64,000 nucleotides of DNA from Alphaproteobacteria bacterium (lineage in GTDB: Bacteria > Pseudomonadota > Alphaproteobacteria > Rs-D84 > JAERRO01). A model generated the notes under the pieces. That model was given only the letters and a program-made list of their open reading frames with translations, searched no databases and was not told the DNA's origin. The stretch lies in the NCBI GenBank assembly GCA_016735395.1, contig JAERRO010000001.1, forward strand, positions 2,428 to 66,427. Reading direction: 5' to 3'. Positions within the stretch are counted from its first letter, which is position 1. Every line of letters begins with the position of its first letter. The translations under genes were made by a program, and so were the position numbers. Below, piece after piece: positions 1,436 through 63,433 of the stretch.

Positions 1436-3064
1436 CTAGCTATTGTCTTTCTCTTCAATATGTAGTTTATATCTTTCTTCAATAATAGATGTATATTTTT
1501 TAATAATTTTATCAATTTCATCACAGCAACCATATTCGTCTAGAAATTCTTCTATCTCTGCGATCTTTTCTTCTATCTCACGGCCACATCTTTGTAGATT
1601 ATTTTTAAGATTGTTTATCTCCAAGTTAGAAATACTGAAATTTTTTATCTTGTCGACACTCTTTTGTGCTTTTAAAAATTTATCTTTTTTTAGTGTCTTT
1701 AAAATATCTATTAATTTAGAAGACTTCTTATTTTTGTCCGTGTAATTGAAAGCTTCTAAATTTATCAAAAAGGCTTCTAAATTATTTCTAAAATCTATAG
1801 TTTCATTCTTGAAATTATCATCTCGATCATTTATAATAGAATTATTTGATATCCTTATAATGCCATCGCCCAGAGATATTATATTACTACAATCTAGTAG
1901 AACTTTATAACTACTGGTGTGATAGGGATTATCTATGTCTTTGTAAAAAGGATTATAATGATGTAATAATCCTAAATGAACATTTCCTTTTTCTTTATAT
2001 TTCTTCTTGCATAATAATGAAGATAAGTAATTACATCTTACTTTTCCTATTTTATTACTTTTACAAATAATAATTGCATTTCCTATTACCTCTTTAAATT
2101 CTCGACTCGTTAGTTTAGATTTTTTACCATATTCAGCTAGCCACTTTTTTAATTGAAATAGGCTATTATAGCTTTCCCCTTCTAACTTTATATTGCTACA
2201 ATCTCTAAATACTTCTTCTAAAAGTACATCATTACATAGATATTCATATTTAGGAGGTGGTATCTTAAAATCACCTTCATTACTAATAAATTTTTGTAAA
2301 TATGTTTCTTCATTATTTTTATTCGAATTTAAATTATAAAAGCCATTAATGTATTCATTAAGTTTATCTCTATGTACAGGAAATATAACAATAATTCCTT
2401 CAATATCAAAAAAATGTTTAACTGTTTCTAGTGTTTTTACTGCATAATCTGGTCTACATCTATCTAGTTCGTCTACAATTAAGACAAGTTTACTGTTTTT
2501 TAACTTTGTAATAATGTCTTTTAAAGACTTCTGCATATTTAAAATAGGATCATCGCTTTCTTTAGATGTTTTACTCCAATTATTGACTAGAGCTTTCCCA
2601 GAAATTCTTATTTTAGTAACTGTTGGGATTGCAACTTCCATATTTATAGATGAAATAACATTACCTAGCCCCTTAAATACAGCCTTTTTTAATTTGCTTA
2701 AATTTATATCGTCCTCGCATACAAGATTATCTTTTTCTATAAATTGTGTTATCGCCTTTGAAAAAGATAAAAAAGGATCTGGCATATAATCACTTTCCCA
2801 AGCACTAAAATAAATATTATTAATTTCTTCTTTTTTTAAATATTCTGAAAATCTTGTAGAAAAAAAAGTTTTTCCAGTTCCATATCCACCTTCTATACTG
2901 AAAACATATGGTGTCTTCCTCTTAATAATTTCTTGCATTACACCTACCGCGAAAATTTCAATTCCAGGAAATGCATCCGCCCAAATATTCTCTAGGCAAG
3001 TACTTTTATCTTTTGCACTTAAAGTTGCAATATATTTGATAAAATTTGTTTTATCTATATTCAT
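1436..3064 (-). CDS. KAP-family P-loop NTPase
   Basis: Walker A GGYGTGKT; KAP signature LVLIVDELDRCRPDYAVKTLETVKHFF; 542 aa, a typical KAP size. Confidence 0.75.
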   Translation of the reverse strand: MNIDKTNFIKYIATLSAKDKSTCLENIWADAFPGIEIFAVGVMQEIIKRKTPYVFSIEGGYGTGKTFFSTRFSEYLKKEEINNIYFSAWESDYMPDPFLSFSKAITQFIEKDNLVCEDDINLSKLKKAVFKGLGNVISSINMEVAIPTVTKIRISGKALVNNWSKTSKESDDPILNMQKSLKDIITKLKNSKLVLIVDELDRCRPDYAVKTLETVKHFFDIEGIIVIFPVHRDKLNEYINGFYNLNSNKNNEETYLQKFISNEGDFKIPPPKYEYLCNDVLLEEVFRDCSNIKLEGESYNSLFQLKKWLAEYGKKSKLTSREFKEVIGNAIIICKSNKIGKVRCNYLSSLLCKKKYKEKGNVHLGLLHHYNPFYKDIDNPYHTSSYKVLLDCSNIISLGDGIIRISNNSIINDRDDNFKNETIDFRNNLEAFLINLEAFNYTDKNKKSSKLIDILKTLKKDKFLKAQKSVDKIKNFSISNLEINNLKNNLQRCGREIEEKIAEIEEFLDEYGCCDEIDKIIKKYTSIIEERYKLHIEEKDNS

Positions 3065-3132
3065 AGGTGACCTTTATATAATTTATAACCTACAATAGAA
3101 ATAAACAAGTTCTTTAGGGGGAGGGGTATGAT

Positions 3133-3208
3133 TGGTGCGAGTGACGGGATTCGAACCCACAACTTCCACCTTGGCAAGGTGGCGCTCTAGCCATTGAGCT
3201 ACACTCGC
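3133..3208 (-). tRNA. tRNA-Gly (anticodon GCC)
   Basis: The reverse complement folds as a 76-nt cloverleaf: acceptor GCGAGTG/CACTCGC, anticodon loop CTTGCCAAG, TTCGAAT T-loop, 3' CCA encoded. Confidence 0.85.
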
Positions 3209-3212
3209 TAAT

Positions 3213-3287
3213 TGGTGGGCGCAGTAGGATTTGAACCTACGACCAAATGCTTAAAAGGCACTTGCTCTACCACTGAGCTATGCGCCC
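3213..3287 (-). tRNA. tRNA-Lys (anticodon UUU)
   Basis: Reverse complement GGGCGCATAGCTCAGTGGTAGAGCAAGTGCCTTTTAAGCATTTGGTCGTAGGTTCAAATCCTACTGCGCCCACCA; perfect 7-bp acceptor stem, anticodon loop CTTTTAA, CCA encoded. Confidence 0.85.
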
Positions 3288-3361
3288 ACTAAATAATATA
3301 ATACATAAATTTATTATAAAATCAACTATATATGTAAATTTATTCTTATTTTATTATTGCT

Positions 3362-3889
3362 TTATGATTTGTAATTTTTTACAGACTTTAAGATAATTTC
3401 TTTAGCTTTTTCTATTCCTTCCCAGCCTGATAGTTTTACCCATTTGTTCGGTTCTAGATCTTTATAATGCTCGAAGAAGTGTGTGAGTTTTTTTCTAAAT
3501 GCCAAAGGAATATCTTCATAGCTTTGTATGTCGTCATAGAATTTTTCTACTTTGCTATGCGGGACACATAGAATTTTTTCGTCCATACCAGCTTCGTCTT
3601 CCATAATAATTACTCCTACAGGTCTAACTCGTATCATAGATCCAGCCATTAAAGTAGTATCGTTAATTACTAGAACATCTAGCGGGTCTCCGTCGTCGGC
3701 TAGAGTGTATGGAATGTATCCATAGTCTGCAGGGTATGTCATAGGAGTGCTTAAAATTCTATCTACGATTAGAACTCCGCTATCTTTATCTATTTCGTAT
3801 TTTACTCCTCCGTTTTTAGGTATCTCTATCACCGCATTAAAATCGGTCGGAATATCTTTGTGCTTCGGTAATTTTTCTAGTATTGTCAT
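3362..3889 (-). CDS. ppa: Inorganic pyrophosphatase (family I)
   Basis: 175 aa. Conserved blocks NAVIEIPKNGGVKYEID, DVLVI and YGYIPYTLADDGDPLDVLV. Confidence 0.9.
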   Translation of the reverse strand: MTILEKLPKHKDIPTDFNAVIEIPKNGGVKYEIDKDSGVLIVDRILSTPMTYPADYGYIPYTLADDGDPLDVLVINDTTLMAGSMIRVRPVGVIIMEDEAGMDEKILCVPHSKVEKFYDDIQSYEDIPLAFRKKLTHFFEHYKDLEPNKWVKLSGWEGIEKAKEIILKSVKNYKS

Positions 3890-4010
3890 TTATAATCCTT
3901 TCGTATTTACTGTTATTTATATATCTATAGAATATATTTTATTATTTTTCAACTCTAGACTTTCTCGTTAAAAGTGTTATACTATAGGTAGAATTCTACA
4001 GGAGGACTAT

Positions 4011-4601
4011 ATGAAGTTCAAATTATTATTTTACGGAGATTTGAAGACTAATCCTAAACATAGAAACATATATATACATTCATTGCGAACATTTATTCAC
4101 TATCAGCTAGTAGAGTTGATGAAGCAGTCGCCGTGGAGTAGACTAGTCGATCACCAGGGGGCAAATCCCAAAAAGAGCCCTAGTATTTCCAAAACGGTGC
4201 ATGGGATAGAATTTCATTCTTTAATTACAAAGGGTATGAAATTTCTAGCAGAATTAGATATAAATTTACTGCATCCTTCTATAGCAGGGACGAAACACGC
4301 AGATCTAGACAATCGGTTGAAGTCTTTACTAGATGCCCTGAAAGCTCCAACCCTAGACAACGAAGTTCCGGCAGATGCCTTTAAAGATAAAAATAAAATG
4401 TATACTTTGTTAGAAGATGATAGTTTAGTTTCTAGAATAAACATTAACACTAGCCATCTGCTAACCCACGATATTTTTGATCAAAATCCAGCCGTGGTTT
4501 TTGGACACGATAATAACATAAACAATAATATATTTATGATTATAGATGTTAAACTGCGAATAAGAGAAGGTACAGTAGAAAATTTACCTTTTATGGTCTA
4601 A
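4011..4601 (+). CDS. rusA: RusA-family Holliday-junction resolvase-like protein (phage-type). A more likely start is the ATG at 4119.
   Basis: Catalytic-core signature HADLDNRLKSLLDALK (D-x-D-N-x-x-K...DAL) and downstream LLEDDSLV, matching E. coli RusA [27 protein letters not shown]. The N-terminal 36 aa are probably not translated. Confidence 0.55.
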   Translation: MKFKLLFYGDLKTNPKHRNIYIHSLRTFIHYQLVELMKQSPWSRLVDHQGANPKKSPSISKTVHGIEFHSLITKGMKFLAELDINLLHPSIAGTKHADLDNRLKSLLDALKAPTLDNEVPADAFKDKNKMYTLLEDDSLVSRININTSHLLTHDIFDQNPAVVFGHDNNINNNIFMIIDVKLRIREGTVENLPFMV

Positions 4602-4610
4602 GACTATCTA

Positions 4611-7600
4611 TCAAGGTAAACATTGACTCCATTGAGCCGTAGGGTTTAATCTAACTCTAAACTCGTTAGCAGGGCAATTATAGTCAGATTTATTTTCCCA
4701 ACCATTCTCTCCCGTAATAATACTACTAGAGAAAGTATAACTAGAACAAACATCCGTCTGTTTATTAAACTCACTATTCGCAAGATTCGTTTCGCTACAA
4801 TCTATAGCAGATCTGATATCCTTTTCTTCTTCGGTAAGGTCATTTATATCAACGGTACACAGGCTATAAGGAGTCGTAACTTTTATATAACTACACATAT
4901 TATAGGAGGAAGTCGTTACAGAACTTTCAGCAATAGCATTTACTACTGAAAATGATTTAGAACTTTCTTGTCCTGCGAGTTTCATCTCTTCTAGTATCGT
5001 CTCTGCAGTGTTTAATAGATCTTGATAATGGACAGCATGGTCCCTCAAGAGTGTAGGGAAGAAAACGGAACCGTAATTGTTTTTTACAAAATAGGACTCA
5101 CTAGGAATAATAGTAGGCGATTGTCTCGTAAAACCAGCTTCAGTCGCACATAGATCCGCCGTATTAAGACAAGGATTGTCGGGATTATCTCTGATAAAGA
5201 CCAACCGTTCTATGAAGTCTTTAAAGGTATGTTGCGGATATTTCTCTGCAACCCATGCAGGTGCATCCCACAAGTAAAGTCCCTTATCACTGTTAGAAAG
5301 TGAACCAGCTAATGAACCGACTGTATCAGATGTAGGGTTAAGAGGCGACAATATCATAACGATGCGGTGATCGTCTATAGATAAAATGTCCTCACCCGTT
5401 ATATTACCAGCTTTATCTGTATTTTTTCTAGTAATGAACGGGAGATTTTCAAATGGGTTCGTCCTACTAGAGGACGGAGACTCCGCATCTTTAATATCTC
5501 CTCGTATCCAACCTAGAAGTTGTCCTGCCAATACTACCTTTGGAGCGGTGATCCCTATACCAGCTCTACGATTGATAAATGGAATGCCGACAAAGTGATT
5601 AGAGTTGATATCTTCTATAGGAGATTCAGGGTCTATACCAAAATTAATCTCATCGTAAGACTTAGCATCGCCGTTTTCGTCAGAGATAAAATTCAAATAA
5701 CATAGAGTCGTCCACCCACCTAGATTTCCCCACTGTCTGAAAGAACCGTTTGTACAGAACCCTTGATCAAAATCATTATAAGTGTATTGATTTGTAGAAT
5801 AGATAAAGTCGACTTGATCGTATCCTACGAAGTCGCTCTTATCTTGATCTAGAGTACTAGCATTATCCCAATTTAGGTAATATAGTTCTTGACCGTCTAC
5901 ATACTGGAAATTATCGGTGTCTACCTCCTCAAAAGATAGATCTTCTCCGCTACTACCTTTCGCATCGAATCTGTCTACTATATTCGTCATATAATACGAT
6001 AAAATTCTCAAGTTAAAAGTATCTTGCCCGGTATTAACCAATCTAGAAGGATACCTCCAGGCATAAACACATGGAGATGTATGCAGAGATGTAATAAACG
6101 GAGAGATATTTCTGACACCGCTTGTCGGATTCTCGTAGACCCGTATATATATAAAGGCTCTTCTTTCGGCTATTAAATTTGTGTCTTTAACAAGAGAATT
6201 CTTGCAGAATTGAAATTTACAAGCACCCCATTGTTGGACTACATTATTATTTACATCTAACATCTGTTCCCACTGTCTTCTCATACCTTCAGGACAACCT
6301 ACATTAGTAAATTTATCTGTAACCATCTTTCCGCCTACGATATGAGACCCGTGATATGTAGGTATATTATTGCAGGTACCTGTTGAAATGCTGATAGTAT
6401 TGTTATTTATATTTATAAAGTTCCCGTTATATTCTGTAATAGTAGAACTCGTATTTATATTGAAGAAGTCGTAATTATCGAATGTATAAGTCCTAAAATT
6501 TATATCGGCGATTTGACCGTTTACCATAATATCGTTACATATTTCTATATCGTTACAAAGTTCTAATTCGGCATCTGCATCTTCGTCAAAACTACAACCG
6601 TAGAAAGGCCAGTGATTATAATCTATAATGGCATCATCGACCCGTTTCATAATCTGTTTCTGCGGATGATTGGCAGTTTTATCACCTACGGATACAGGAA
6701 TAGGTTTTATACAATATTGTTCTAAATCTAGTTCGGCATTCTTTAAAATAGTTCCTGTAAATAACTTCCGTTCTCCTACTTCACAAACAGTATCATCGTC
6801 TCTGTCTTCGTCATCCCAGATGGTTAAGAGATCGTCGAGATTTTCTAAGATATAATTTCTGTTTATGTTATCATCTATAGGGATAAGATTTAGTTGTCCT
6901 ATAATCGACGATAAAGTAGTATTATGAGTTAATTTTGACTCTAGTTTATCCCTAAAATTTCCGGGAGAAACATTATTGAAGAAAGAAGTGGAGATACAAA
7001 AGTTATTATCGTCACGAATACACTCTATATTTTTGTCGTCGTACATAGGTAAAAGAGCTTGAGAAGTGTATTGCACCCTTTGATGCAGACACTCTAGATC
7101 TTTTGAACCTGTATCACTCTCGTCTACAATAGGTACATTCGTGTTTAAAGCTCCGTATAGATTTTCTCTACCGCTTTCGCTCCGTCGTATAAAAGGAAGT
7201 TTGGTGGTAGTCGTGTTAATAGTGTCTTGAGAATAATCTTGGTATATAGATAGCGGAGGATTTTCTATCAACCCTGAATCACTATTACATGTACTCCAGT
7301 TTCCTATGGCTGTTCTATTAGGTTGAGAGCTGATAATTAGAGTAGGCTTATCGATACCTGGCACCCATTTATAGACACAATTGTCTTCTTCTCTATAAAT
7401 TAAAGCATAATTAGAATTATCTACCATAGGAATATTTTTACAGTAGGGTTTAGCTTTACAAGAATGACTAGGAGAAATTCTTTCATATCCATTCGGACAA
7501 TCAGGTATTAGATAAGATGGCATAGTAATACAACTGTCGGCTCCGATGTGTACATGCCCATTGATTTCACATGTATCATTATGATTGCCTTCGATACTAC

Positions 7601-52220: not shown

Positions 52221-52832
52221 TTAGAAAATATCTTTTTCTGCAGTCGAGTCTAGTCTAGAAATAATCAAATTCCAGTCAATTAAATTATCTAAAGTAGATC
52301 GAACAAAATCTGCCCGCAAATTTTTGTAGTCTAAATAATAGGCATGTTCCCATACATCTATGACTAGTAAAACTACTCCGCCATACAATAGTGGGGTTTC
52401 GCCATTAAGTGTATTTTTTATTTCTAAAACATTTTCTTTATTGAGTACTAACCATACCCATCCGGAGCCAAAAAGTCCTAAAGAAGATTTTACGAACTCT
52501 TCTTTAAAGTTGTCTACGGAGCCGAAGTCTTTTACGATTAGAGATTTTAATTTACCGTCTTGAAAATCAACTGATTTCTTTAACTGTTTAAAAAACATTG
52601 TGTGATTGTAGTGTTGTCCTGCATTATTAAAAATGCCGACATTCTTATCGCTACTAGACTTCTTTATAACCTGCTCGATATCTAGCCCGACATAGTCCGT
52701 ACCTTCAATCAACTTATTTAGATTATTCACATATGTTTGGTGGTGTTTGCTATAGTGTATCTCTACAGTTTCCGCGGACATATACGGCGATAAATCGTCA
52801 TAGCCATAATCTAGTTTTGGTATCTCAAACAT
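52221..52832 (-). CDS. sodB: Fe/Mn superoxide dismutase
   Basis: FEIPKLDYGYDDLSPYMSAETVEIHYSKHHQTYVNNLN and DVWEHAYYLDY. Start taken at the Met with AAGGAG RBS (52832); the upstream in-frame ATG at 52856 is unlikely. Confidence 0.9.
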   Translation of the reverse strand: MFEIPKLDYGYDDLSPYMSAETVEIHYSKHHQTYVNNLNKLIEGTDYVGLDIEQVIKKSSSDKNVGIFNNAGQHYNHTMFFKQLKKSVDFQDGKLKSLIVKDFGSVDNFKEEFVKSSLGLFGSGWVWLVLNKENVLEIKNTLNGETPLLYGGVVLLVIDVWEHAYYLDYKNLRADFVRSTLDNLIDWNLIISRLDSTAEKDIF

Positions 52833-52901
52833 AATATCTCCTTTTCTACAAGTCATTTATTCTAAAATATAAAATTTTAGAAAAAATGTCAACCCACGAT
52901 T

Positions 52902-52984
52902 TATTCTAGAATTTCATACTTGATTGTTAAACTATAAGTTGATATAGTAGGAATAAATAAAACTACGATCGCAGGGAGGTAAAA
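52902..52984 (+). repeat. Copy 1 of a duplicated promoter/5'-UTR segment. It lies upstream of the 2TM-A gene and contains a TTGATT-17-TATAGT promoter at 52920..52948.
   Basis: 52908..52966 recurs at 54030..54088 with 2 mismatches. In copy 2 it is fused to a 29-bp piece of the sodB 5' coding region. Confidence 0.7.
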
Positions 52985-54001
52985 ATGGATAGAAAAAAGT
53001 TTGAAAATATAATATCACAAATTAATGATACATGTGATAAAATTCAAGAATTTGAAGATGTCACTAAACCTGAATTAATTAAAAAAAATAGATTTGGTGG
53101 AGGGTTTGGGGAGTATCTTTCAAGACATAGTTTTGATGTAAGCAATATTAAAAAGAAAATAAATAAACTATTAGATATAGACTTTAGTATCTTTTATGAT
53201 AATGCTGAGATATTAGCTATTCAAAACTTAATACAAATACTTTTAGATCACTGTAACAGATATAATAATGGTAATTCTGGTTATCTCTTTACAGAAGAAC
53301 ATTATAATAATACCTTTAAAAACAACAGATATGAAATAAATGAACTAATAGATAATTTACAGACAAAAAATTACGAGTTTGAAACCATTATCTCTATAGT
53401 TACTAATAATGAGATAAAAAAATTTTCTGATATAAACAAGATATACGAAAATATAGAGCAGAGTAAAACTGCATTAGAATCTATTAAAACAAATGAAAAT
53501 GCCTCGCAGATCGCTATGGAAAATATTAAGGTGGCTACGAATACCATTGGTGTAATAAAAAAAGCAGAGGGATTTGCAACTATAGCAGAAAAAAGTCATA
53601 AAAAGGCTCAAAAATATGAGTGGGTTATTTTTATATTTGCATTATTGTTGATGGGGCTAGTAGTACTAGCTTTTATAAAAATTGATAGCATATTTTTTTC
53701 TCGTTTAATCTTTTTAGTTCCTCTATTTACAGTTTCACTTATTTATCTCATTATATTAGAAAAAAGATACAGAATCAGGGCTTTTAAATACAAGGATCTG
53801 GAGGTTTCTATTTTATCTTTGTCGGCATATCTAGGAGATATTAGCGATAAACCTATGGAAGAATTGTCTGCTAAAGATACTTTTAAATTAAAGATGGCAG
53901 AATTTTATTATAAGCAGGTTTACGACGAGACTAAAATAAAGGAAAAAAATATTACGGAGCTTGTGACGAGTACCATAAAGAGTGCTAAAGGGACGACCTA
54001 G
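52985..54001 (+). CDS. Two-TM membrane protein A (soluble N-domain + 2 TM helices + C-terminal helix); candidate defense effector
   Basis: 338 aa. GGAGG RBS. TM helices WVIFIFALLLMGLVVLAFI and LIFLVPLFTVSLIYLIIL. Same architecture as 56034..57017. Confidence 0.5.
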   Translation: MDRKKFENIISQINDTCDKIQEFEDVTKPELIKKNRFGGGFGEYLSRHSFDVSNIKKKINKLLDIDFSIFYDNAEILAIQNLIQILLDHCNRYNNGNSGYLFTEEHYNNTFKNNRYEINELIDNLQTKNYEFETIISIVTNNEIKKFSDINKIYENIEQSKTALESIKTNENASQIAMENIKVATNTIGVIKKAEGFATIAEKSHKKAQKYEWVIFIFALLLMGLVVLAFIKIDSIFFSRLIFLVPLFTVSLIYLIILEKRYRIRAFKYKDLEVSILSLSAYLGDISDKPMEELSAKDTFKLKMAEFYYKQVYDETKIKEKNITELVTSTIKSAKGTT

Positions 54002-54103
54002 GCGATAAATCGTCATAGCCATAATCTAGAATTTCATACTTGATTGTTAAACTATAAGTTGATACAGTAGAAATAAATAAAACTAAATTTTGGGAGTTTC
54101 GTT
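54001..54103 (+). repeat. Copy 2 of the duplicated segment: a sodB 5' fragment (= 52787..52815) fused to the promoter region (= 52908..52966), lying upstream of mod. Promoter TTGATT-17-TACAGT at 54040..54068.
   Basis: The 29 bp ggcgataaatcgtcatagccataatctag is identical to sodB codons ~6-15. It is followed directly by aatttcatacttgattgttaaactataagttgata. Confidence 0.7.
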
Positions 54104-56032
54104 ATGGAAGATAATCTATTAAACAGTATTCTGGAGCTTTTCAAAAGTAAAAAACTAGAACAATATTACAACGGGGAAGGTCTTCTAACTAATAAGATAG
54201 AAGAGGATGCCCTTAAACTAGATTCTACATTACTAGAAGTTCTACTAGAAGACGAGGACACACAGAAGGCATTTTTTGCTACGGTAGGAGATATTAAAGT
54301 TTTCGATAAAATAAAATTTCAGTTATACATAAACAGTAAAGAATTTTTAAAAGATAGTTTTACTAAATACAAACAAAACATAGGATTAACAGACGAATAT
54401 GGTAAGGGGCTGAAACAAAATAATAATGTAGTTCTAAACTGGCCGTACAAAGATTGTATTTTGGAAGGCGGGCAAGATAAGGAAGACAAAAGCAGGAAAG
54501 AAGTTTTCTATAATGAAGTGTTGGCTCCCGAATATATAAATATACTTACAGACAAAAAGGCCTTTCATAATGCCGTTAGAGTTAAAGGCGAGGGCGACAA
54601 AGAAGAGCCTGTTACAGACTTTAATAGAAATGAGGACGGAACTATTACAGATAATTTAATGCTAAAGGGAAATAATCTACTAGTTCTACATAGCCTCAAA
54701 TCTCAATTTGCCGGCAAGATAAAACTAATTTATATTGATCCCCCTTATAATACTGGAAACGACGGCTTCAAATATAACGATAGATTTAATCATTCTAGCT
54801 GGCTTACCTTTATGAAAAATAGACTTGAAGTTGCTAGAGAACTTCTAGCCGACGACGGTGTTATCTTCGTTCAATGCGACGACAACGAACAGGCCTATCT
54901 AAAAGTCCTTATGGACGAAGTCTTTGGAAGGGCGAATTTTGTTATTAATTTAGTCTGGGAAAATAAGGAAGGCGGTGGGAAGTCCGATAGTATAACTTTT
55001 AGAAGAAAGCACGAATATATAATTACATATGCAAAAATAATAGATAACATAGAAATATATGGAAGAGATGTTGAGGACGTCGAAAGGTATAGATTATCTG
55101 ATATACATGAAGAGTATCGTGGAAAATATCAATTAATTAAACTAGATAGTGCGAGTCTAGGATATATAAAATCATTGGACTACTATATATTATCTCCAGA
55201 GAATACTCGTATATTTCCTAACAAAGATGACAACAAAATTAGTCGTTGGAGGTGGAATAAAAAGAAATTCGAATGGGGGGTAAAAAATGACTTTGTCGTA
55301 ATAAAAAAAGATAGAGACGATAATTGGGCTGTCTACACTAAACAATATCTAAATTGTGATAACAATGCAAATATTAAGAGAAGGACACTACAGCCAATAG
55401 GTGTAATTTCTAAATTTTCAAACACTCAATCTAATATACATATGAAATCTTTGTTCGGAACTGCTAAGTTTTCTTATTCAAAGCCAGAGCAATTAATTGA
55501 ATTTTATTTACAAATATCAACAAAGCCGGGGGATATAGTTCTAGATTTTTTCGCAGGGAGTGGGACTACGGCGGGGGTAGCTCACAAGATGGAGCGACAA
55601 TGGATCACTATAGAACAGATGGACTATATTCAGGACATCACAAAAGCTAGGCTGAAAAAAGTCGTAGATGGCGAACAGGGAGGTATCTCTAAAGCTATAG
55701 ACTGGAAAGGGGGCGGAGAATTCGTCTATATGGAAATGATAGAGAAAAATAATCGTTATTTTAATGAAATTATACAGTCGGAATCAGACGAAACTTTAAA
55801 AATACTATACAAACAAATTAAAGAAGAAACTTTCTTTAGATATGATATAGACCTAAAGGGACTAGATGCTCTAATGGACGACTCCATTTCCTTAAAACAT
55901 AAAAAGGAAGCCCTCACTCAATGCCTAGATAAAAATCACCTCTATTTGAACTACTCTAGCATCGACGACCGAAACTTTAATAAAGACGAAACCGTCTCTA
56001 ACCTCAATAAAAAATTCTACAAGGAGGTGTAG
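54104..56032 (+). CDS. mod: Type III restriction-modification methyltransferase (Mod), N6-adenine, beta class
   Basis: Motif IV IYIDPPYNTG precedes motif I DFFAGSGTTAGVA (permuted beta-class order); 642 aa. No simple-sequence repeat inside. Confidence 0.9.
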   Translation: MEDNLLNSILELFKSKKLEQYYNGEGLLTNKIEEDALKLDSTLLEVLLEDEDTQKAFFATVGDIKVFDKIKFQLYINSKEFLKDSFTKYKQNIGLTDEYGKGLKQNNNVVLNWPYKDCILEGGQDKEDKSRKEVFYNEVLAPEYINILTDKKAFHNAVRVKGEGDKEEPVTDFNRNEDGTITDNLMLKGNNLLVLHSLKSQFAGKIKLIYIDPPYNTGNDGFKYNDRFNHSSWLTFMKNRLEVARELLADDGVIFVQCDDNEQAYLKVLMDEVFGRANFVINLVWENKEGGGKSDSITFRRKHEYIITYAKIIDNIEIYGRDVEDVERYRLSDIHEEYRGKYQLIKLDSASLGYIKSLDYYILSPENTRIFPNKDDNKISRWRWNKKKFEWGVKNDFVVIKKDRDDNWAVYTKQYLNCDNNANIKRRTLQPIGVISKFSNTQSNIHMKSLFGTAKFSYSKPEQLIEFYLQISTKPGDIVLDFFAGSGTTAGVAHKMERQWITIEQMDYIQDITKARLKKVVDGEQGGISKAIDWKGGGEFVYMEMIEKNNRYFNEIIQSESDETLKILYKQIKEETFFRYDIDLKGLDALMDDSISLKHKKEALTQCLDKNHLYLNYSSIDDRNFNKDETVSNLNKKFYKEV

Positions 56033-56033
56033 G

Positions 56034-57017
56034 GTGGATAACAGAGAAAGACTTATAAAGACTATACAGAAAAAATTTTTTAGTAGGTTTGATATTTTTT
56101 ACGACCTAAACGACAGTGTATGGTTCGAGTTTGTAGATAAAGTTAGTGGTTATAGTCCTATATATGATTTTACGGATTACATTACACCGTATCTTATAAA
56201 GGGTATAGTAGATAAAATTGATACCACTACTCTCAAAGGCATAGTTAAACACATAGCTAACATTTGGGCTATAATAGACACATCTAGGTATAAAAACAAA
56301 GATTCATATTCAGGTAAAGATCAGATAATTTTTTATAAAGAAAATCTAAACGAACAAGACGACATAATAACAGAATTTAAAAAAATAAAAAGTTTATTGG
56401 AAAAATATAAATCTATTCTCGGAGAAAAGGATGAAGATCTGAAAGAAGAACATATGATAGAAACGAAATCATTCGCAGAATCATTCCTCGAGTCTAAAAA
56501 CAGTTATAATAGAAATATATGGATTATGTACATAGTACTACTTTTAACCTTAATAGCTATTGTGGGATTATATTTAATTGGGACTAAAACTTTCAACAAT
56601 TTAGATTTTATTAGTACAATAATATCACGGTTATTATTTTCTGCTCCGCTTATTTTCTTTGCATTTATTATAACGAAAAATCTATTTAACTTTCAATCTA
56701 TGTATGAAGCATACAACCATAAACAAAGGGTCGCAGAAGCTTTTTTAATTTTAGATCTAAAAATGGATAAAGAAAAAGAATGGCTTCTTAAAAAAACATT
56801 TCACGGGGGAAGCATCGAGCAAGGTCGCCTAGAACAAATTAACAAAGAGAAAGATCTATTATCTGGGACTCTTATGTCGGTAGTTCAAGAAAATCCTACA
56901 CATTTTTTAACAAAAGATAAATCTATGAAGAAATACCTAAAAGAACTAAAAGAAATTAAAGACCTGTTTATGGCTCCTAATATTATAGAAAGCAATCGAG
57001 TAGATAAAGGTAAATAA
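56034..57017 (+). CDS. Two-TM membrane protein B, embedded between mod and res; GTG start coupled to the mod stop
   Basis: GTG at 56034 lies 1 nt after the mod TAG, with AAGGAGG at 56021..56027. TM helices IWIMYIVLLLTLIAIVGLYLI and LLFSAPLIFFAFIIT. The stop overlaps the next ATG (TAATG). Confidence 0.55.
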   Translation: MDNRERLIKTIQKKFFSRFDIFYDLNDSVWFEFVDKVSGYSPIYDFTDYITPYLIKGIVDKIDTTTLKGIVKHIANIWAIIDTSRYKNKDSYSGKDQIIFYKENLNEQDDIITEFKKIKSLLEKYKSILGEKDEDLKEEHMIETKSFAESFLESKNSYNRNIWIMYIVLLLTLIAIVGLYLIGTKTFNNLDFISTIISRLLFSAPLIFFAFIITKNLFNFQSMYEAYNHKQRVAEAFLILDLKMDKEKEWLLKKTFHGGSIEQGRLEQINKEKDLLSGTLMSVVQENPTHFLTKDKSMKKYLKELKEIKDLFMAPNIIESNRVDKGK

Positions 57018-57030
57018 TGAATGATAATTT
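57001..57030 (+). repeat. 30-bp direct repeat, copy 1 (RBS + ATG + first 4 codons MNDN); copy 2 is at 57966..57995, the res start
   Basis: tagATAAAGGTAAATAATGAATGATAATTT vs taaATAAAGGTAAATAATGAATGATAATTT: 29/30 identical; the two flank the DUF3800 gene. Confidence 0.75.
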
Positions 57031-57856
57031 TATTATCTTTGTAGATGAATCAGGAGATCATAGCCTGTCTAAAATAAATCCTGAATTCCCTATATTCAAT
57101 CTAGTTTTTGTAGTATTCGAACAGAATCATTACTGTAATGTCGTTCTGCCAAAATTTAATCTACTTAAGTTAAAATACTTTAATAGTACTAATGTAATAT
57201 TTCACGAAAGAGAAATTAGAAAATCACTAAATAACTTTACAATACTAAAAAATTCCGTAGTAAGAAATAATTTTATAAATGATGTAGATACATTTTTAAA
57301 AAATATATCTTTCGAAATCATTACAATTAATTTTTTAAAAGAAAAAAATGCTAGGGAAGAAGTTAATATATACTCAAAATGTATGGAGGTAGCTCTTCCT
57401 ATTATTCAAAAATTTTTAGAAAAAAACTCTAGTTTAGAAAACAAAACTTTAATTACTTTTGAAGGGAGGGGGAAACAAGAAGATAGATCTCTAGAATTAG
57501 AATTCTTGAGGGAAACAAAGGACTATCAATATAACAACCTAAATATAGACATCATAACTAAACAGTCAAATTCTACCGGGCTACAGATCGCAGACTTAAT
57601 AGCTAGACCTATCGCAAATGAAATATTAAACTCGAAAAAAATAAACGATATTAAAGACTCTAATTGTGTAGGTTTCGGAATCGACAAAATAACAATAAAT
57701 GAAATGTTTCCTAAACCTTGCCACAATAGAGCTTTTGGATGTATAAAACCTAATATATATACTTTGCAAGTAATAATAAAACATGAAGTAATAAATAATA
57801 TGAAGGAAGATCTAAATTTTAATATAAAGCGAAAAAGGGCGGTTACACCACCCTAA
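57017..57856 (+). CDS. DUF3800-like protein
   Basis: N-terminal FIIFVDESGD motif and later GLQIADLIARPIA motif, as in the DUF3800 family; 279 aa. Start overlaps the stop of the 2TM-B gene. Confidence 0.45.
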   Translation: MNDNFIIFVDESGDHSLSKINPEFPIFNLVFVVFEQNHYCNVVLPKFNLLKLKYFNSTNVIFHEREIRKSLNNFTILKNSVVRNNFINDVDTFLKNISFEIITINFLKEKNAREEVNIYSKCMEVALPIIQKFLEKNSSLENKTLITFEGRGKQEDRSLELEFLRETKDYQYNNLNIDIITKQSNSTGLQIADLIARPIANEILNSKKINDIKDSNCVGFGIDKITINEMFPKPCHNRAFGCIKPNIYTLQVIIKHEVINNMKEDLNFNIKRKRAVTPP

Positions 57857-57981
57857 AGACGCCGATTGAGCATTCCCAATCCATTTATAATATATTATAT
57901 ACTATAAAAATTAAGAATGCAAGAAAAATAAAAAAAAGGGGACTTGACAAAGTCTAAAGATTAAATAAATAAAGGTAAATA

Positions 57982-60570
57982 ATGAATGATAATTTAGTAT
58001 ATTCTTTAAATGTCCTAGCAGGAGAAGATATTTTTAACCCTAGTGAAATTCCTGACTATATTACAAATAATGTCGCTCATAAACTGCGGGACTATCAAAC
58101 CGAAGCCCTAGCTAGATTTCGTTTCTATATCGACGATGATGGATACAAGAACAAAAAGAAGCCGATACATCTGCTGTTTCATATGGCTACGGGGTCAGGG
58201 AAGACTATCGTTATGGCTGGCTGTATTCTAGAACTATATAAAAAGGGGCATAGAAATTTCCTGTTCTTTGTTAACTCCGACAATATAATTGACAAAACTA
58301 AACATAATCTTCTATATCAAAATTCTAATAAATATCTGTTCAATAAAGATAAAATTATTATAGATAATAAGGCCGTTGCCGTAAAAGTCGTAGAAAATTT
58401 TAACGAAGCCGATGACGATTCTATCAATATATGTTTCAATACTATTCAAAAACTGCACGGAAACCTTATCAACACAGGCGAAAATGGAATTTCTACCGAA
58501 ACTTTTAAGGATACGAAAGTTGCTATAATATCCGACGAAGCCCATCACATCAATAGTATGACTAAAAAAGAATCCAAGGATGAACAAAACTGGGAGAACT
58601 CCGTTCTAGGTATTCTAAATGCGAATAATGACAATGTTATGCTAGAGTTTACCGCGACTATGGGTATGAAAAACGAGGCTATAGCAAAAAAATACAACGA
58701 TAAAGTTATATACGACTACACTTTCTTGAAATTTAATATAGACAAATATTCTAAAAATGTTTTTACTCTCGCCTCAACTTTCGATAATAACTATAAAATT
58801 TTACAGGCGATCGTTCTATCTCAATATAGACTAAAACTAGCAGTGCATCATAAGGTAAACCCGCTGGTTAAACCTGTCATTCTTGTGAAATCTAAATTTA
58901 TTAAAGATAGCACAAATGACTACAAAGAATTTTACGAGTTCTTGGAAAGACTAAAAGAAACAGATCTAGATAAAATTGAAAATGGCTCCGAGTCTAAAGA
59001 AATAAAATCTGCCTTTGAATTCTTCAAAAAAAATAAAATCACTAATGAAAATCTAGTCCTAGAGCTAAAGCAAGCCTTTAAAGTCGAAAATAGTGTTATC
59101 ACGGACTCAACAAAATCTACTCTTAATGCAAAGGTTCTACTCAATACACTAGAAGATGAAAAGAACAAAATTAGAATCATATTCGTCGTTAATCAACTTA
59201 ATGAAGGATGGGATGCTATCAATCTATATGACATCGTAAGGCTATATAATACTAAAGATAAAGGTAATGATGCTACTGTATCCGAGGCTCAACTAATAGG
59301 AAGGGGGGCTAGATACTGCCCCTTTACTACCAAAGACTCAGACGAAGATAAGTATAAACGAAAATTTGATGCCGATGCTAATAACGAACTTTCTATCCTT
59401 GAAGAATTCTACTTTCACTGCGATGATAATAGCAAATATATATCAGAGCTAAAGGCAGAACTAAAAACGCAAGGTATCATAGAAGAAGAAGTCCCCAACC
59501 TAGTTAGTATTGAGCTGAAAGAGAGTTTTAAAGAATCTGACTTCTATGAAAAAGGTTGTATTTTTCTAAATAAACAAGAACCTACTGATAAAGCAAAAAA
59601 CTTTAAAGAAGTCAAAAAACTTATAAAAAGTCAAGCATTTAAATACAATTCTACTATAGAAGATGGTAGGTCTAATAGTAAAAATAATCTATTAAAGGGT
59701 GATATTCTAAATGAAAACTCCAGTACAAAAAGAACAGAAACTTTAGATAAAGATGATTTTAGTAAACAGATTATTCAAACTGCTTTTGATAGAAATCCAT
59801 ACTTTAATTTTGATAAAATGAAAAAATACTGTGGGGGAAAAGTTGAGTCTATGAAGGACTTTATAGATCAAGTTATGGAGAATGTAAAAGTTGAGGTTAG
59901 ATATCAAGGAAACAAAGATACATTATTAACCCCGCGAGTGAAACTAGATATATTTTCTAATGTCCTAGGGGAAATCTCGAAAATTATGGAGAAGAATAAC
60001 ATAGAAAAGAGGGGGACGAGGGAATTCTCACATAAGAAAATATTAGAAATATTTATAGATAAAAAATTCAAGAGTAGTGGTACTGAAAAAGATATGAGGG
60101 GGCATAAGTGGTTCGCCTATGACAAAAATTACGGTACGAGTTTAGAAAATGATTTTATAAAATATATTATAGAAAAAAAAGAAGAGATAGAAGACAAATA
60201 TGCAGAGTTTTATCTATTAAGAAGTGAACGGTTTTTTAGGCTGTACGACTTCGAACAAGGTCGAGGATTTGAGCCTGACTTTGTTATGTTTTTTAAGAAA
60301 AATGGAAGTGAAGAATTTTCTAACCTACAAGTGTTTATAGAGCCTAAAGGTGGTCATCTATTAGAACATGATAAATGGAAATCTAAATTTTTAGAGAGCA
60401 TAAATAAAAATGTAGAATTTGGTGACGATCTATTTAATGATTCTAAAGATTTTAAAATAATAGGTCTCCCATTTTATGTTGACAATAAAGAACTACTGAT
60501 CGACGAAAAGAAGTTTACAGAACGAAAATTTAAAGAGGCTTTTAAAGAACAAATATTTAACAACGACTAA
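57982..60570 (+). CDS. res: Type III restriction enzyme Res subunit (SF2 helicase + C-terminal PD-(D/E)xK endonuclease)
   Basis: LRDYQTEAL; motif I MATGSGKT; motif II IISDEAHH; C-terminal nuclease FEPDFVMFF...VFIEPKG; 862 aa. Confidence 0.9.
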   Translation: MNDNLVYSLNVLAGEDIFNPSEIPDYITNNVAHKLRDYQTEALARFRFYIDDDGYKNKKKPIHLLFHMATGSGKTIVMAGCILELYKKGHRNFLFFVNSDNIIDKTKHNLLYQNSNKYLFNKDKIIIDNKAVAVKVVENFNEADDDSINICFNTIQKLHGNLINTGENGISTETFKDTKVAIISDEAHHINSMTKKESKDEQNWENSVLGILNANNDNVMLEFTATMGMKNEAIAKKYNDKVIYDYTFLKFNIDKYSKNVFTLASTFDNNYKILQAIVLSQYRLKLAVHHKVNPLVKPVILVKSKFIKDSTNDYKEFYEFLERLKETDLDKIENGSESKEIKSAFEFFKKNKITNENLVLELKQAFKVENSVITDSTKSTLNAKVLLNTLEDEKNKIRIIFVVNQLNEGWDAINLYDIVRLYNTKDKGNDATVSEAQLIGRGARYCPFTTKDSDEDKYKRKFDADANNELSILEEFYFHCDDNSKYISELKAELKTQGIIEEEVPNLVSIELKESFKESDFYEKGCIFLNKQEPTDKAKNFKEVKKLIKSQAFKYNSTIEDGRSNSKNNLLKGDILNENSSTKRTETLDKDDFSKQIIQTAFDRNPYFNFDKMKKYCGGKVESMKDFIDQVMENVKVEVRYQGNKDTLLTPRVKLDIFSNVLGEISKIMEKNNIEKRGTREFSHKKILEIFIDKKFKSSGTEKDMRGHKWFAYDKNYGTSLENDFIKYIIEKKEEIEDKYAEFYLLRSERFFRLYDFEQGRGFEPDFVMFFKKNGSEEFSNLQVFIEPKGGHLLEHDKWKSKFLESINKNVEFGDDLFNDSKDFKIIGLPFYVDNKELLIDEKKFTERKFKEAFKEQIFNND

Positions 60571-60653: not shown

Positions 60654-61715
60654 ATGACAAATGTGAAAAATAACAGTTTAAATCTTTTTGATTATGCGAC
60701 AAGTGAACTTTCTCAAGATGCTTTTTTGTGCTGGCTACTAGCCCATCATCCTATATGTCAAAACGAAGATAGTGAAATAAAAGATAAAGATATTTCTCAA
60801 TGTGCAGAAAATTTATTAAATGAACTACTAGGAAAACATTCAACAGAACTAGGAAAAATAACAGAACTAGAAATAAAAAGGCAATATAAAAAGATTGATA
60901 TATTAGTGATAATCAATAAAAAATATGGACTAATCATAGAAGATAAAACCGATACATCTGAACACGGAAACCAATTGGGTAAATACTTTAAGGTTGTAGA
61001 GGAAAAGGGATTAATCCCTCTAGGAATATATTTTAAAACTGGTGATGAACTAAAAAGAGATGAAATAAAAAGAGATAAAATAAAAAGAGATGAAATAAAA
61101 AGAGATGAAATAAAAAATAAGAGTGATGAAGATATAGAATATACATATAAAACATTTTATAGAGATGAGTTATTAGAGGTATTAAAAAAACACAAAACAA
61201 AAAATGATATCTTTACTTCATTCTATAATAGGCTAGACAAATTTGAAGAAGATTATAAATCATACGAAAACAACAAAGTTGCCGATTGGTCTAGTAGAGC
61301 ATGGTCAGGATTTTTTCATAATAAACTATATAAAAATGATAGACAAAATTTTGATAAATTCTGGTATGGATATGTTCCAAATCGAAGTGGCGGTTTTCTA
61401 TGCTTCGCATGGGAGTTTAGATACATAGACAAAATAAAAGTATATTTTCAATTTGAAATAAGAAAAGTAGGTAATACGATGAATCCTATTTTAGTAGTTA
61501 AAACATCTTGTGAAAATAAACCGCTACCAGATGTAGCCCTCAATAAAATAGATGAATATATAGGTAAAGACTTGTGGAAGAAATTTAAGAGGCGGAGAAG
61601 TGATGGAAAAACATCTTCTAGGCTAATCTATATTTTAGAAGATCTTAATAATATGGAATATGGCGAGCTTATAGAATCTATTGAGAAAGCAACAAAATCT
61701 TTTGATTTAAAATAG
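60654..61715 (+). CDS. Hypothetical PD-(D/E)xK nuclease-like protein with an internal KRDEI tandem peptide repeat
   Basis: N-terminal SELSQDAFLCWLLAHHP and KKIDILVIINKKYGLIIEDKTDTSEH (D...E-D-K arrangement). Central LKRDEIKRDKIKRDEIKRDEIK encoded by 4 x 15-bp repeats. Confidence 0.4.
   Translation: MTNVKNNSLNLFDYATSELSQDAFLCWLLAHHPICQNEDSEIKDKDISQCAENLLNELLGKHSTELGKITELEIKRQYKKIDILVIINKKYGLIIEDKTDTSEHGNQLGKYFKVVEEKGLIPLGIYFKTGDELKRDEIKRDKIKRDEIKRDEIKNKSDEDIEYTYKTFYRDELLEVLKKHKTKNDIFTSFYNRLDKFEEDYKSYENNKVADWSSRAWSGFFHNKLYKNDRQNFDKFWYGYVPNRSGGFLCFAWEFRYIDKIKVYFQFEIRKVGNTMNPILVVKTSCENKPLPDVALNKIDEYIGKDLWKKFKRRRSDGKTSSRLIYILEDLNNMEYGELIESIEKATKSFDLK
61053..61112 (+). repeat. 4 tandem copies of a 15-bp unit AAAAGAGATGAAATA (one copy with G->A), in-frame within 60654..61715
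   Basis: Read directly: aaaagagatgaaata / aaaagagataaaata / aaaagagatgaaata / aaaagagatgaaata. Confidence 0.85.
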
Positions 61716-61773
61716 AAAGTATTTTGTTCTGTGTTTTTAGGATTTTTACTCTAGTATTACTATTGTTTTATAT

Positions 61774-62724
61774 TTAAGATTGAGAAGGATATTCACATAA
61801 TATAAAAAATCCATTTCTTTCAACTGGTTCTCCCAAATTTTTGCCTTCTCTATATTTTTCTGCAAAAGGTTTATGGGAACATGAAATAGTTATCTTATCG
61901 TTATCGATCTCGAACATAAAATTTCCTCCTTGATTGTTCGTAAACATATCTACTCTAGAGGAGTCTCTATATTTATTGTAATTGATACAAGCGGAGGGGG
62001 CGTTTCCTATCATCGTTATTCCAGGGTTTACTATCTCTAGAAATGAAAAGCCTCTACCAGAATCCCTCCCATGATGAGGAGCTATAAATAAATCTATATT
62101 TGAAATATCATTCTTATGTTTTTTAATTAAATGTTCCCAAGTCTTATCATCACTATCACCACAAAATAATATCTTAAAATTACCTGTCTTATATAAGATA
62201 ACTCCAGAACAATCATTCCAGTCTCCAATTATATCAGCCTTTTGTATTAAATCTTTGGTTGGAGACAAAATCTTTAATCCGTCTTCTATTATAAAGCTTT
62301 TTTTAACGTCATCTTGTAAAGAGTGAGCTTTTTTTAATAGTTCTTTATAACAGTCCCAATCTTTTTTGTCTGTGTCAGAAATTTTTTCATCTGTTTTCTT
62401 TGTTTTATATCCCCAAAAATTATCAATCCCGATACATTCTTTTAATGCCTTTATTCCTTTTAAATGGTCCATATCTGGATGAGTTAAAAAAAATCTAAAT
62501 ATGGCTTCGTCTTTATAATACTTTTTTAAAAAATCGATAGGATTTATAGGATGTTTTTTCTCTCCGAAGTTTCCTCTCGTAGATGCTGTGACTGTTTCCG
62601 ATAACTGGATAGAATCTTTTAAAGACTTCCCGTTGTTAATATCAATCATCGTTAGTCTACCAGAATAATGTTGTATTATTGAGCTATCTCCATTACCTAC
62701 ATTTAGAAAATATATTTTTGACAT
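61774..62724 (-). CDS. Metallo-beta-lactamase-fold hydrolase (ComEC C-terminal/Rec2-like family)
   Basis: LNVGNGDSSII, HxHxDH-type LTHPDMDHLKG, FCGD, APHHGR; 316 aa. 11 bp downstream of the membrane-protein gene. Confidence 0.55.
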   Translation of the reverse strand: MSKIYFLNVGNGDSSIIQHYSGRLTMIDINNGKSLKDSIQLSETVTASTRGNFGEKKHPINPIDFLKKYYKDEAIFRFFLTHPDMDHLKGIKALKECIGIDNFWGYKTKKTDEKISDTDKKDWDCYKELLKKAHSLQDDVKKSFIIEDGLKILSPTKDLIQKADIIGDWNDCSGVILYKTGNFKILFCGDSDDKTWEHLIKKHKNDISNIDLFIAPHHGRDSGRGFSFLEIVNPGITMIGNAPSACINYNKYRDSSRVDMFTNNQGGNFMFEIDNDKITISCSHKPFAEKYREGKNLGEPVERNGFFILCEYPSQS

Positions 62725-62735
62725 TTTTTATCCTT

Positions 62736-63218
62736 TTAGTTTATATCTATTATTTTTACTATTTTAATAGCATGTTTTCTTATAGAAAAAGTAAACAAGA
62801 TTATAAATGCTAAGAATATCAGTGACATTGAAAACATTCCTTTAAACATTGTTACTAAAAACAGAATGATAAACAGAGTATTTATATTTCTTGAAAAACC
62901 ATATTCCCTTGAGAGAAGTTCTAATCTTGGATTTGTATTTAAAGCTTTGTTAAATAGAGTATGATCTCTCCACGGAATTATTTTAATAGATTTGAAACAA
63001 TTTTCTAGAACTAGAGAACCTAATCTACTAATAACAGTACCGATAAAATAAGAGAAAGAGAGATAAATGATATTTAAATTTACTCCAGAAAATTGGTCTA
63101 ATCGGTTCAAATCTACTTTTATATTTATAAGACTAAGACCTATTATAAATAATATTCCTATGAAAATTTTATTTACTACTTCATAAAACGGTATTCCTGT
63201 TTTCATATAGTCCTCCAC
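62736..63218 (-). CDS. Hypothetical polytopic membrane protein (3-4 TM), co-oriented with the MBL hydrolase
   Basis: 160 aa. Hydrophobic segments IFIGILFIIGLSLI, IIYLSFSYFIGTVI, LFIILFLVTMF and LIFLAFIILFTF. Confidence 0.4.
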   Translation of the reverse strand: MEDYMKTGIPFYEVVNKIFIGILFIIGLSLINIKVDLNRLDQFSGVNLNIIYLSFSYFIGTVISRLGSLVLENCFKSIKIIPWRDHTLFNKALNTNPRLELLSREYGFSRNINTLFIILFLVTMFKGMFSMSLIFLAFIILFTFSIRKHAIKIVKIIDIN

Positions 63219-63242: not shown

Positions 63243-63317
63243 TATAGTGTCGTTACTATGATTGGTGGGGGCAGGGGGATTCGAACCCTCGACCTGCTGA
63301 TTAAGAGTCAGTTGCTC
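63243..63317 (-). tRNA. tRNA-Lys (anticodon CUU)
   Basis: Reverse complement GGGGGCATAGCTCAGTGGTAGAGCAACTGACTCTTAATCAGCAGGTCGAGGGTTCGAATCCCCCTGCCCCCACCA; perfect acceptor stem, loop CTCTTAA with U33/A37, CCA encoded; 75 nt. Confidence 0.8.
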
Positions 63318-63433
63318 TACCACTGAGCTATGCCCCCATAATTTACTTACCTATATATAGACCGTTTATAAATAATTTTCAATACTAGACGACTACTTAT
63401 TTTGATCTTCTATTTCAATAGATCTATTCTACT

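Follow-up and report, generated by a model that had tools for sequence, protein, structure and literature searches.

A direct repeat at the starts of DUF3800 and res genes, and a small RNA gene between them, in an alphaproteobacterial Type III restriction operon

Genes of the locus and the repeated start region

We analysed a window of 64,000 nt from an alphaproteobacterium (Alphaproteobacteria bacterium, assembly GCA_016735395.1, contig JAERRO010000001.1, positions 2,428 to 66,427), in which a gene of the DUF3800 family lies inside a Type III restriction-modification (R-M) operon and its start region recurs almost letter for letter at the start of the restriction gene, res. The locus, a small defence island, comprises in order sod (minus strand), 2TM-A, Type III mod, 2TM-B, DUF3800, a 125-nt gap, Type III res, a PDC-S26-like gene, PDC-M48B, PDC-M48A and tRNA-Lys. 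The canonical adjacency of mod and res is absent, as two genes and an RNA gene intervene. The features on which the argument depends are the following (positions are those of the window).

57001..57030, plus strand: R1, the left repeat copy, holding the last five codons and TAA of 2TM-B and the overlapping ATG and first four codons of DUF3800
57966..57995, plus strand: R2, the right repeat copy, holding the Shine-Dalgarno sequence AAAGG, the ATG and the first four res codons
57017..57856, plus strand: DUF3800 gene, 279 aa, with an RNase H-like core at residues 1-208
57825..57888, minus strand: small RNA gene of ~64 nt, convergent with DUF3800, with its own -10 box and terminator
57894..57922, minus strand: RNA promoter-like region as read from the sequence, TTGCAT (57922-57917), a 17-nt spacer and TATAAT (57899-57894), ~7-9 nt from AUGG
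57926..57959, no strand: 34-nt spacer between the RNA promoter and R2, missing in locus L004 (see below), with TTGACA at 57944-57949
54104..56032, plus strand: Type III mod, with N6_N4_Mtase and TypeIII_RM_meth domains
56034..57017, plus strand: 2TM-B, an orphan two-transmembrane protein with a GTG start and a stop that overlaps the DUF3800 ATG
57982..60570, plus strand: Type III res of the HI_1054 type, with a ResIII helicase and a C-terminal nuclease region

Read directly from the sequence, R1 is TAGATAAAGGTAAATAATGAATGATAATTT and R2 is TAAATAAAGGTAAATAATGAATGATAATTT. The two agree at 29 of 30 positions, 27 of them contiguous, and the sole mismatch is the third base (57003/57968, G to A). 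Each copy contains AAAGG, a 7-nt spacer, ATG and the codons AAT GAT AAT; the proteins start MNDNF (DUF3800) and MNDNL (Res), and the identity of the two starts ends at codon 5. At R1 the DUF3800 ATG overlaps the TAA stop of 2TM-B (TAATG), and since the 2TM-B GTG lies 1 nt past the mod stop, mod, 2TM-B and DUF3800 form a chain. No gene ends at R2, where a vestigial in-frame K-G-K-TAA nevertheless precedes the res ATG.

A first-pass annotation of the window had described this repeat and the shared MNDN, and both descriptions hold. It had also named a common translation-initiation context as the explanation that would undo its reading, and within the window this can be set aside. With up to three mismatches the 30-mer occurs in the 64 kb at R1 and R2 only (0.00 sites expected from 100 dinucleotide shuffles), and so does its 17-mer core. 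When the -16 to +14 regions of all 51 starts of open reading frames (ORFs) of at least 100 aa were compared, the mean pairwise identity was 11.5 +/- 2.6 of 30 and the runner-up pair reached 21/30, against 29/30 for R1 and R2. Two further public assemblies carry the same sequence (Logan SRR13427716, 100% identical to the window over the whole locus, and GCA_022702835.1, 100% identical up to 57120), and the repeat is therefore not an artefact of a single assembly run.

The DUF3800 protein has the RNase H-like fold and matches Pfam PF12686 with 48.6 bits (gathering score 21) over residues 6-201; 645 homologues were found at E<=1e-3. The hallmarks of PF12686, an N-terminal DE motif and a C-terminal QxxD motif (PMC7736814), are intact, with D10, E11, Q190 and D193 invariant in the family alignment. 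Both ends of the protein are unusual. Homologues typically begin M-x-x-S-D-[YFW]-IVYVDESG behind their own ribosome-binding site, whereas the window protein begins MNDN-F-IIFVDESG: its gene has the res start region instead of the native ribosome-binding site and first ~5 codons, which are missing. The N-terminus of Res has a length typical of its family. At the other end, the C-terminal ~70 aa are atypical and of low confidence in the model. The stop codon that the family typically has just before the RNA terminator is out of frame in the window, and the ORF enters the RNA gene by 32 nt; the DUF3800 ORFs of loci L063 and L076 likewise run into their RNA genes.

Both R-M genes are well supported. 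Mod matches PF01555 (5.6e-47), PF12564 (3.2e-16) and PADLOC MTase_III (1.4e-170), and Res matches PF04851 (4.7e-31) and, over residues 18-836, PADLOC REase_III (7.4e-124), with HI_1054_N/HI_1054 domains on record.

A small RNA gene convergent with DUF3800

The first sign of an RNA in the region of the 125-nt gap was a GC-rich hairpin (57836-57854) with a T-run on the minus strand. Compared with shuffled sequences, 57786-57925 folds markedly better on the minus strand (z=-5.6) but not on the plus strand (z=-1.9). The closest DUF3800 homologue (48% identity) belongs to another organism (locus L005), and a clearly homologous element lies immediately past its stop codon; the hairpin there differs in sequence from that of the window and pairs well on the minus strand only. 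We then collected 80 viral-contig loci encoding DUF3800 relatives, and nearly all have the same element right behind the DUF3800 stop, on the opposite strand. From 5' to 3' the family reads (A)AUGG, a P1 hairpin (GAUUGGG, ~4 nt, CCCGGUC), a GGCG linker, a variable terminator hairpin and a U-run, and the linker pairs with CGCU at the base of the terminator hairpin. The window version runs 5'-AAAUGG, P1 (GAUUGGG/CUCAAUC), GGCG, the terminator hairpin (AGGGUGGU/ACCGCCCU) and UUUUUCGCUUU-3'.

A covariance model (named R1 like the left repeat copy, and called the RNA model here) was built from an alignment of 29 distinct sequences from other loci, the window excluded. Its consensus holds 19 pairs, of which 13 are changed on both sides, a strong covariation; 93.5% of the cells are paired, as against 81% in shuffles (0/500 reach 93.5%) and 41-61% with the partners slid. 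In the window the RNA model finds 57825-57888 on the minus strand (40.7 bits, E=5.5e-11), its sole match at E<=1. It also matches L005 and ten held-out loci. Of 82 viral or phage loci, 79 have a single match, which in every case lies on the strand opposite to DUF3800 and immediately 3' of it. The window RNA shows the features of the family: P1, the GGCG linker, the terminator hairpin, the opposite strand and the position just 3' of DUF3800. In 30 of 41 distinct family members, some of them GC-rich, P1 is preceded at a distance of 6-13 nt by a TAnnnT hexamer.

Two other views of this region were discarded. The conserved element 57786-57923, which adjoins the res copy of L004, might have been taken for an upstream element of res; L005, however, carries it after a DUF3800 stop. 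An AT-rich hairpin at 57870-57921 is not part of the RNA, because the family alignment shows a promoter there and not a transcript.

Rfam 15 has no family matching the stretch 56900-58100 of the window or L012 at E<=10 and none matching L005 at E<=1, and 12 viral loci gave no match that reached the gathering score. The database includes DUF3800-I and DUF3800-IX (PMC11701678). Weinberg et al. 2017 reported eleven RNA motifs that adjoin DUF3800 genes (DUF3800-I to -XI), several with terminators and without a known function (PMC5737381). Our RNA resembles them as a structured RNA beside DUF3800, on the opposite strand, with a Rho-independent terminator, found across phyla and at loci of 35-67% GC. 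It differs in giving no match to Rfam 15 and in its fixed linkage, which is always convergent, with a terminator that abuts the stop codon. The small RNA is a family lacking from Rfam 15 that behaves as a further member of the DUF3800-associated kind; it may already have been described under another name, and may equal one of those motifs among DUF3800-II to -XI that Rfam does not hold.

Distribution of the DUF3800-RNA module

DUF3800 and the small RNA form a widely distributed module. The first-pass annotation had suggested a cassette-like insert made up of the DUF3800 gene. A discrete, horizontally mobile unit is indeed what we observe, as the pair occurs in 79 of 82 phage or prophage loci, but the unit is not DUF3800 alone and includes the RNA gene. 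Elsewhere the upstream neighbours of the module are CI/LexA repressors, hsdS, a ResIII helicase or an integrase, none of them related to 2TM-B; 2TM-B is therefore not part of the module, and its candidacy as a conserved partner of DUF3800 was dropped. Repressors of the CI/LexA type (HTH plus Peptidase_S24) precede the module in, for example, L008, L020, L055 and, as gp44, Pseudomonas phage JBD68. In the Paracoccus phage Pkon1 the order is a CI-like repressor, one short gene and then DUF3800. In JBD68 (KY707339.1, L087 800-2272) gp43 is the DUF3800 gene and directly follows the Peptidase_S24 repressor-like gp44; the small RNA lies 3' of gp43 (69.4 bits), and both genes are annotated only as hypothetical proteins. 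JBD68 is a cultured temperate phage of P. aeruginosa PAO1. Searched for in E. coli genomes, the module of L037 (a viral locus of 55% GC) had no copy.

Restriction genes are a second kind of setting. Locus L036 (1282-5663) reads RhuM-hsdS-DUF3800-small RNA-hsdR and L031 (202-3292) reads hsdM-hsdS-DUF3800-small RNA, in both cases with the DUF3800 start overlapping the hsdS stop, and in L015 (27-3292) the module follows a ResIII helicase gene whose stop overlaps the DUF3800 start. Nesting of the module ahead of a restriction subunit is thus recurrent. Start-region repeats flank the module in none of L036, L031, L015 and L020, so that such repeats are not a general trait of its insertion.

Related operons and the age of the arrangement

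Overlap of stop and start codons is a habit of this Type III family. In L089 (HI_1054 type) mod and res are joined by a TAATG overlap, and in L090 (1235-4917, also HI_1054 type) the order is mod-YhcG-res, with the YhcG stop overlapping the res start by 4 nt (ATGA). The YhcG/DUF1016 gene of L090 is nuclease-like, and its start is overlapped by 23 nt by an incomplete and unannotated upstream gene, presumably mod. L090 is further evidence that the HI_1054-type family tolerates nested accessory genes. A res start resting on the stop codon of the gene before it is also the geometry kept at R1, with a vestigial stop at R2, which favours the repeat being the old 2TM-B/res junction.

The only close relative of Res is P0123 (68% identity), which ends before the nuclease region. 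It is encoded on L004 (GCA_022702835.1, JAKGBL010052413.1), a 13-kb phage-like contig with T4-type capsid and head protease genes, from the metagenome assembly that also holds the window sequence; the res copy and its upstream RNA occupy 2595-4743. Upstream of this res copy lie the final ~38 nt of the DUF3800 reading frame (~88% identity), the RNA with its promoter (~98%) and then a 20/22 match to the first 22 nt of R2. The 34-nt spacer, the DUF3800 body, mod and the 2TM genes are missing, and the res start differs from the repeat after codon 2. A putative relic of the DUF3800 body to the left of the shared 38-nt tail was rejected, because its local score of 17 was equalled in 31 of 300 shuffles (13.8 +/- 1.9). 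Among conserved residues, 27% of codons differ between the two res genes; the RNA region is conserved about 10 times better than the silent sites in res, which argues that the RNA would be functional even in L004, without its protein partner.

The first-pass annotation had read the repeat as the scar of an insertion or recombination. A recent date for such an event did not survive the comparison, since a locus with a res only 68% identical already shares the DUF3800 tail, the RNA and a sequence like the res start.

Origin of the repeat

We lean towards a duplicative insertion of the module at the junction of 2TM-B and res, a reading to which we give moderate confidence and which we favour over a later copying of the res start. 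The operon would originally have had a single junction in which the 2TM-B stop overlapped the res start (TAATG), the usual layout of this Type III family, before a rearrangement set the DUF3800-RNA module behind the first four res codons and rebuilt the res start region on the far side. What came in would have been a DUF3800 gene minus its own ribosome-binding site and first ~5 codons, together with the convergent ~64-nt RNA gene, its promoter and its terminator. A donor carrying the pair would probably have supplied it through recombination, either illegitimate or facilitated by homology, or through a template switch. R1 would now give DUF3800 its Shine-Dalgarno sequence, ATG, residues MNDN and translational coupling to 2TM-B, and R2 would keep res translatable at its new place 125 nt downstream, past an RNA gene transcribed in the opposite direction. 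The order of these events and the type of recombination are what we infer from the present sequences.

The neighbourhood offers a parallel case, around the orphan gene 2TM-A:

52786..54085, plus strand: second duplicated upstream region, in which the sod 5' end and the sod/mod intergenic sequence recur around 2TM-A (52985-54001)

Here 52786-52814 (29 nt of the coding 5' end of sod) and 52902-52965 (64 nt from between sod and mod) are found again ahead of mod, at 54001-54085, with identities of 29/29 and 61/64. In the second copy the sod start, ribosome-binding site and promoter are deleted at a TCTAG microhomology. This flanking of 2TM-A by a duplicate with a TCTAG junction suggests that the locus has undergone such events before. 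Insertions by template switching, and duplicative recombination of the illegitimate or homology-facilitated type, belong to the known repertoire of bacterial recombination. The DUF3800 insert resembles their products in being flanked by duplicated tens of target bases, with no transposase or integrase, although the likeness is one of product, from which the mechanism would follow; the neighbouring 2TM-A duplication, with its internal deletion joined at TCTAG, resembles illegitimate recombination as well.

Insertion sequences and transposons are recognised by a transposase, terminal inverted repeats and a target duplication of 2-15 bp. At our locus 30 bp are duplicated, the ORFs of 52.2-63.2 kb include no member of a transposase or integrase family, and the only strong inverted repeats are the RNA hairpins. 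Nor does the insert look like an integron cassette, which would end in an attC site at its 3' end and have intI nearby: the hairpin at its 3' end is the conserved RNA terminator, and there is no integrase in the locus.

Several observations weigh against the insertion that we prefer. The window DUF3800 is only one residue shorter at its N-terminus than usual and its closest homologue likewise starts MND; with so small a difference, the DUF3800 and Res proteins alone cannot fix the direction of copying. The order in L004 implies that the succession DUF3800, small RNA, res start and res is older than the split of res genes that are now 68% identical, and yet R1 and R2 show one difference in 30 where R2 and the L004 copy show at least 6 in 30. 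If the duplication is old, copies so nearly identical require homogenisation (gene conversion), selection or a later event. The copies may have been homogenised or selected, R1 may be later, or the res start of L004 may have changed unusually fast, and the data cannot separate these options. In addition, no relative with an empty site was found, and exact copies of the proteins are confined to contigs whose sequence is that of the window. None of the genome, metagenome and viral collections searched contains the organism: a scan of genome contigs found no relative of res, and exact scans gave 0 matches for a 25-mer of the repeat (metagenome and viral contigs) and 0 for the RNA core (viral, genome and metagenome contigs). 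Finally, the other insertions of the module into R-M operons lack the repeat, so that no general mechanism is implied.

The age discrepancy could be met by supposing that the DUF3800-RNA pair, with a DUF3800 start of its own, already lay upstream of res and that a later copy of the res start replaced the 5' end of DUF3800 and the 3' end of 2TM-B, either through tandem duplication of the unit from DUF3800 to the res start followed by deletion, or as a short gene-conversion patch. L004 shows the old adjacency of DUF3800, small RNA and res although R1 and R2 are nearly identical, and the Shine-Dalgarno half of the repeat is common to the res copy of L004 (20/22). The 20 nt that precede R1 also bear a weak collinear likeness to the rightmost part of the RNA promoter region, but this is not significant by itself (empirical p ~0.12), and an extension of the repeat beyond R1 towards the promoter end was rejected on the same value. 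Such a history needs two events, leaves unexplained the vestigial stop/start overlap at R2, which is typical of a gene junction, and loses force if the res start of L004 diverged fast in a phage, as it could have. We therefore regard later copying as a rather doubtful alternative to the insertion. Selection might instead have kept one shared initiation region, for instance because the adjacent small RNA, or a regulator, acts on it; the identity covers the Shine-Dalgarno sequence, spacer, ATG and four codons, and for so old an arrangement the copies are unexpectedly alike. Against this, the small RNA is not specially complementary to either repeat copy (RNAduplex, -11.4 and -12.3 kcal/mol, weaker than ~95% of background windows), and its targeting of the repeat was rejected; the res start of L004 diverges after codon 2, the window holds no third copy, and selection alone cannot make 27 identical bases out of unrelated sequence. 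Functional identity is thus very unlikely to be the explanation.

The first-pass annotation had further raised the idea of an on/off switch for the DUF3800 gene. Recombination between the repeats would excise the DUF3800-RNA module and restore a 2TM-B-res junction, predicted as ...GAAAGCAATCGAGTAGATAAAGGTAAATAATGAATGATAATTTAGTATATTCTTTAAATG, and populations would contain both states. Twenty-seven identical bases in direct orientation, 965 bp apart, would permit a rare precise deletion, as RecA-dependent recombination in E. coli needs a minimal length close to this. The insert is present, however, in each of the three assemblies covering the site, and no variant contig was seen; the arrangement persisted through the long divergence of res, the sole observed loss of DUF3800 (L004) broke within the gene and not at the repeats, and 52-63 kb contains no recombinase or invertase genes. 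A switch finds no support here, and we consider it very improbable.

Comparison with other systems and implications

Like the YhcG gene of L090 and the DUF3800 gene of L036, the inserted gene of the window is an accessory gene between modification or specificity and restriction genes, coupled by a stop/start overlap. A duplicated start region flanking the insert is seen only in the window, which also has two stacked inserts (2TM-B and the DUF3800-RNA module) and a third gene, 2TM-A, ahead of mod.

Among toxin-antitoxin (TA) systems, type I pairs consist of a convergent antisense RNA and a small membrane peptide, and type III systems such as ToxIN have an RNA repeat array and include cases of phage capture of the antitoxin RNA. 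The module resembles such RNA-partner pairs in that a nuclease-fold gene is tightly linked to a small RNA in a prophage or defence-island setting, that the DUF3800 ORF of the window shares 32 nt with the 3' end of the RNA, and that the phage-like L004 has the RNA without the protein. Unlike the array of ToxIN, which is tandem and lies upstream of an endoribonuclease toxin, separated from it by a terminator, the RNA is single-copy, convergent and downstream, and no tandem repeats were found in 56.9-58.1 kb; the module does not have the layout of a type III TA system. It also differs from type I, as the DUF3800 protein is not a small membrane peptide. The conserved sequence of P1 points to recognition by a protein over simple antisense pairing.

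DUF3800 proteins have been linked to type VII retrons, to accessory genes of Cas12 and Cas13 and to mobile elements (PMC7736814, PMC10910872, PMC13594972, 10.64898/2026.08.25.746378). We infer that the module would act as a nuclease-plus-RNA defence or addiction unit that rides in the restriction operon. In a bolder and, in our estimation, unlikely version, DUF3800 and the small RNA would be an obligate pair, an RNase H/PIWI-fold nuclease checked or directed by its RNA and spreading via R-M operons and prophage immunity regions, and L004 would have captured the RNA and its promoter together with a nuclease-less Res, disarming both host systems; the duplicated res start would be the footprint of a module plugging into a host operon in such a way that the restriction gene is not silenced. 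The RNA and the truncated res of L004 may represent an anti-defence capture, with Res as a putative decoy.

Taken alone, the repeat would seem an ordinary rearrangement scar, and a clean example of an accessory gene slotted into a translationally coupled restriction operon with both genes apparently expressed. The main added value lies in the small RNA that near-invariably follows this DUF3800 subfamily and is missing from Rfam 15, and in the recurrent nesting of the module in restriction operons. What DUF3800 does and what its many RNA partners mean are questions that date from 2017. With the pair present in the cultured phage JBD68, whose host is tractable, direct testing in a lysogen is feasible.

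Neighbouring genes and minor observations

The orphan proteins 2TM-A (52985-54001) and 2TM-B (56034-57017) have a common architecture, with a soluble part of ~160-210 residues, two membrane helices and a tail of ~90 residues. Neither belongs to a family in Pfam, PHROGs, NCBIfam or PADLOC, and 2TM-B has no homologue among 5.8 billion proteins. A weak match between their membrane segments (E=0.011) would allow them to be very distant paralogues; an origin by recent tandem duplication was rejected, as their divergence is far too great for repeats that are 95-100% identical. The GC content of DUF3800, 2TM-A and 2TM-B is 24-29%, and that of mod and res 31-37%, a contrast that speaks for the insertion reading. 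Within the spacer ahead of R2, the TTGACA at 57944-57949 is a possible -35 element for res.

Between res and tRNA-Lys(ctt) (63263-63337) lie three more defence-candidate genes (60654-63218), encoding a PDC-S26-like PD-(D/E)XK protein, PDC-M48B (metallo-beta-lactamase-like) and PDC-M48A (a membrane protein). Inside the PDC-S26-like ORF, at 61044-61118, five tandem copies of a 15-nt unit encode (K/R)RDEIK repeats; this array could vary in length by slippage. Elsewhere in the window, two pairs of direct repeats of ~75% identity, 16321-16711/19860-20250 (3.5 kb apart) and 30475-30558/31388-31471 (0.9 kb apart), are probably paralogous genes.

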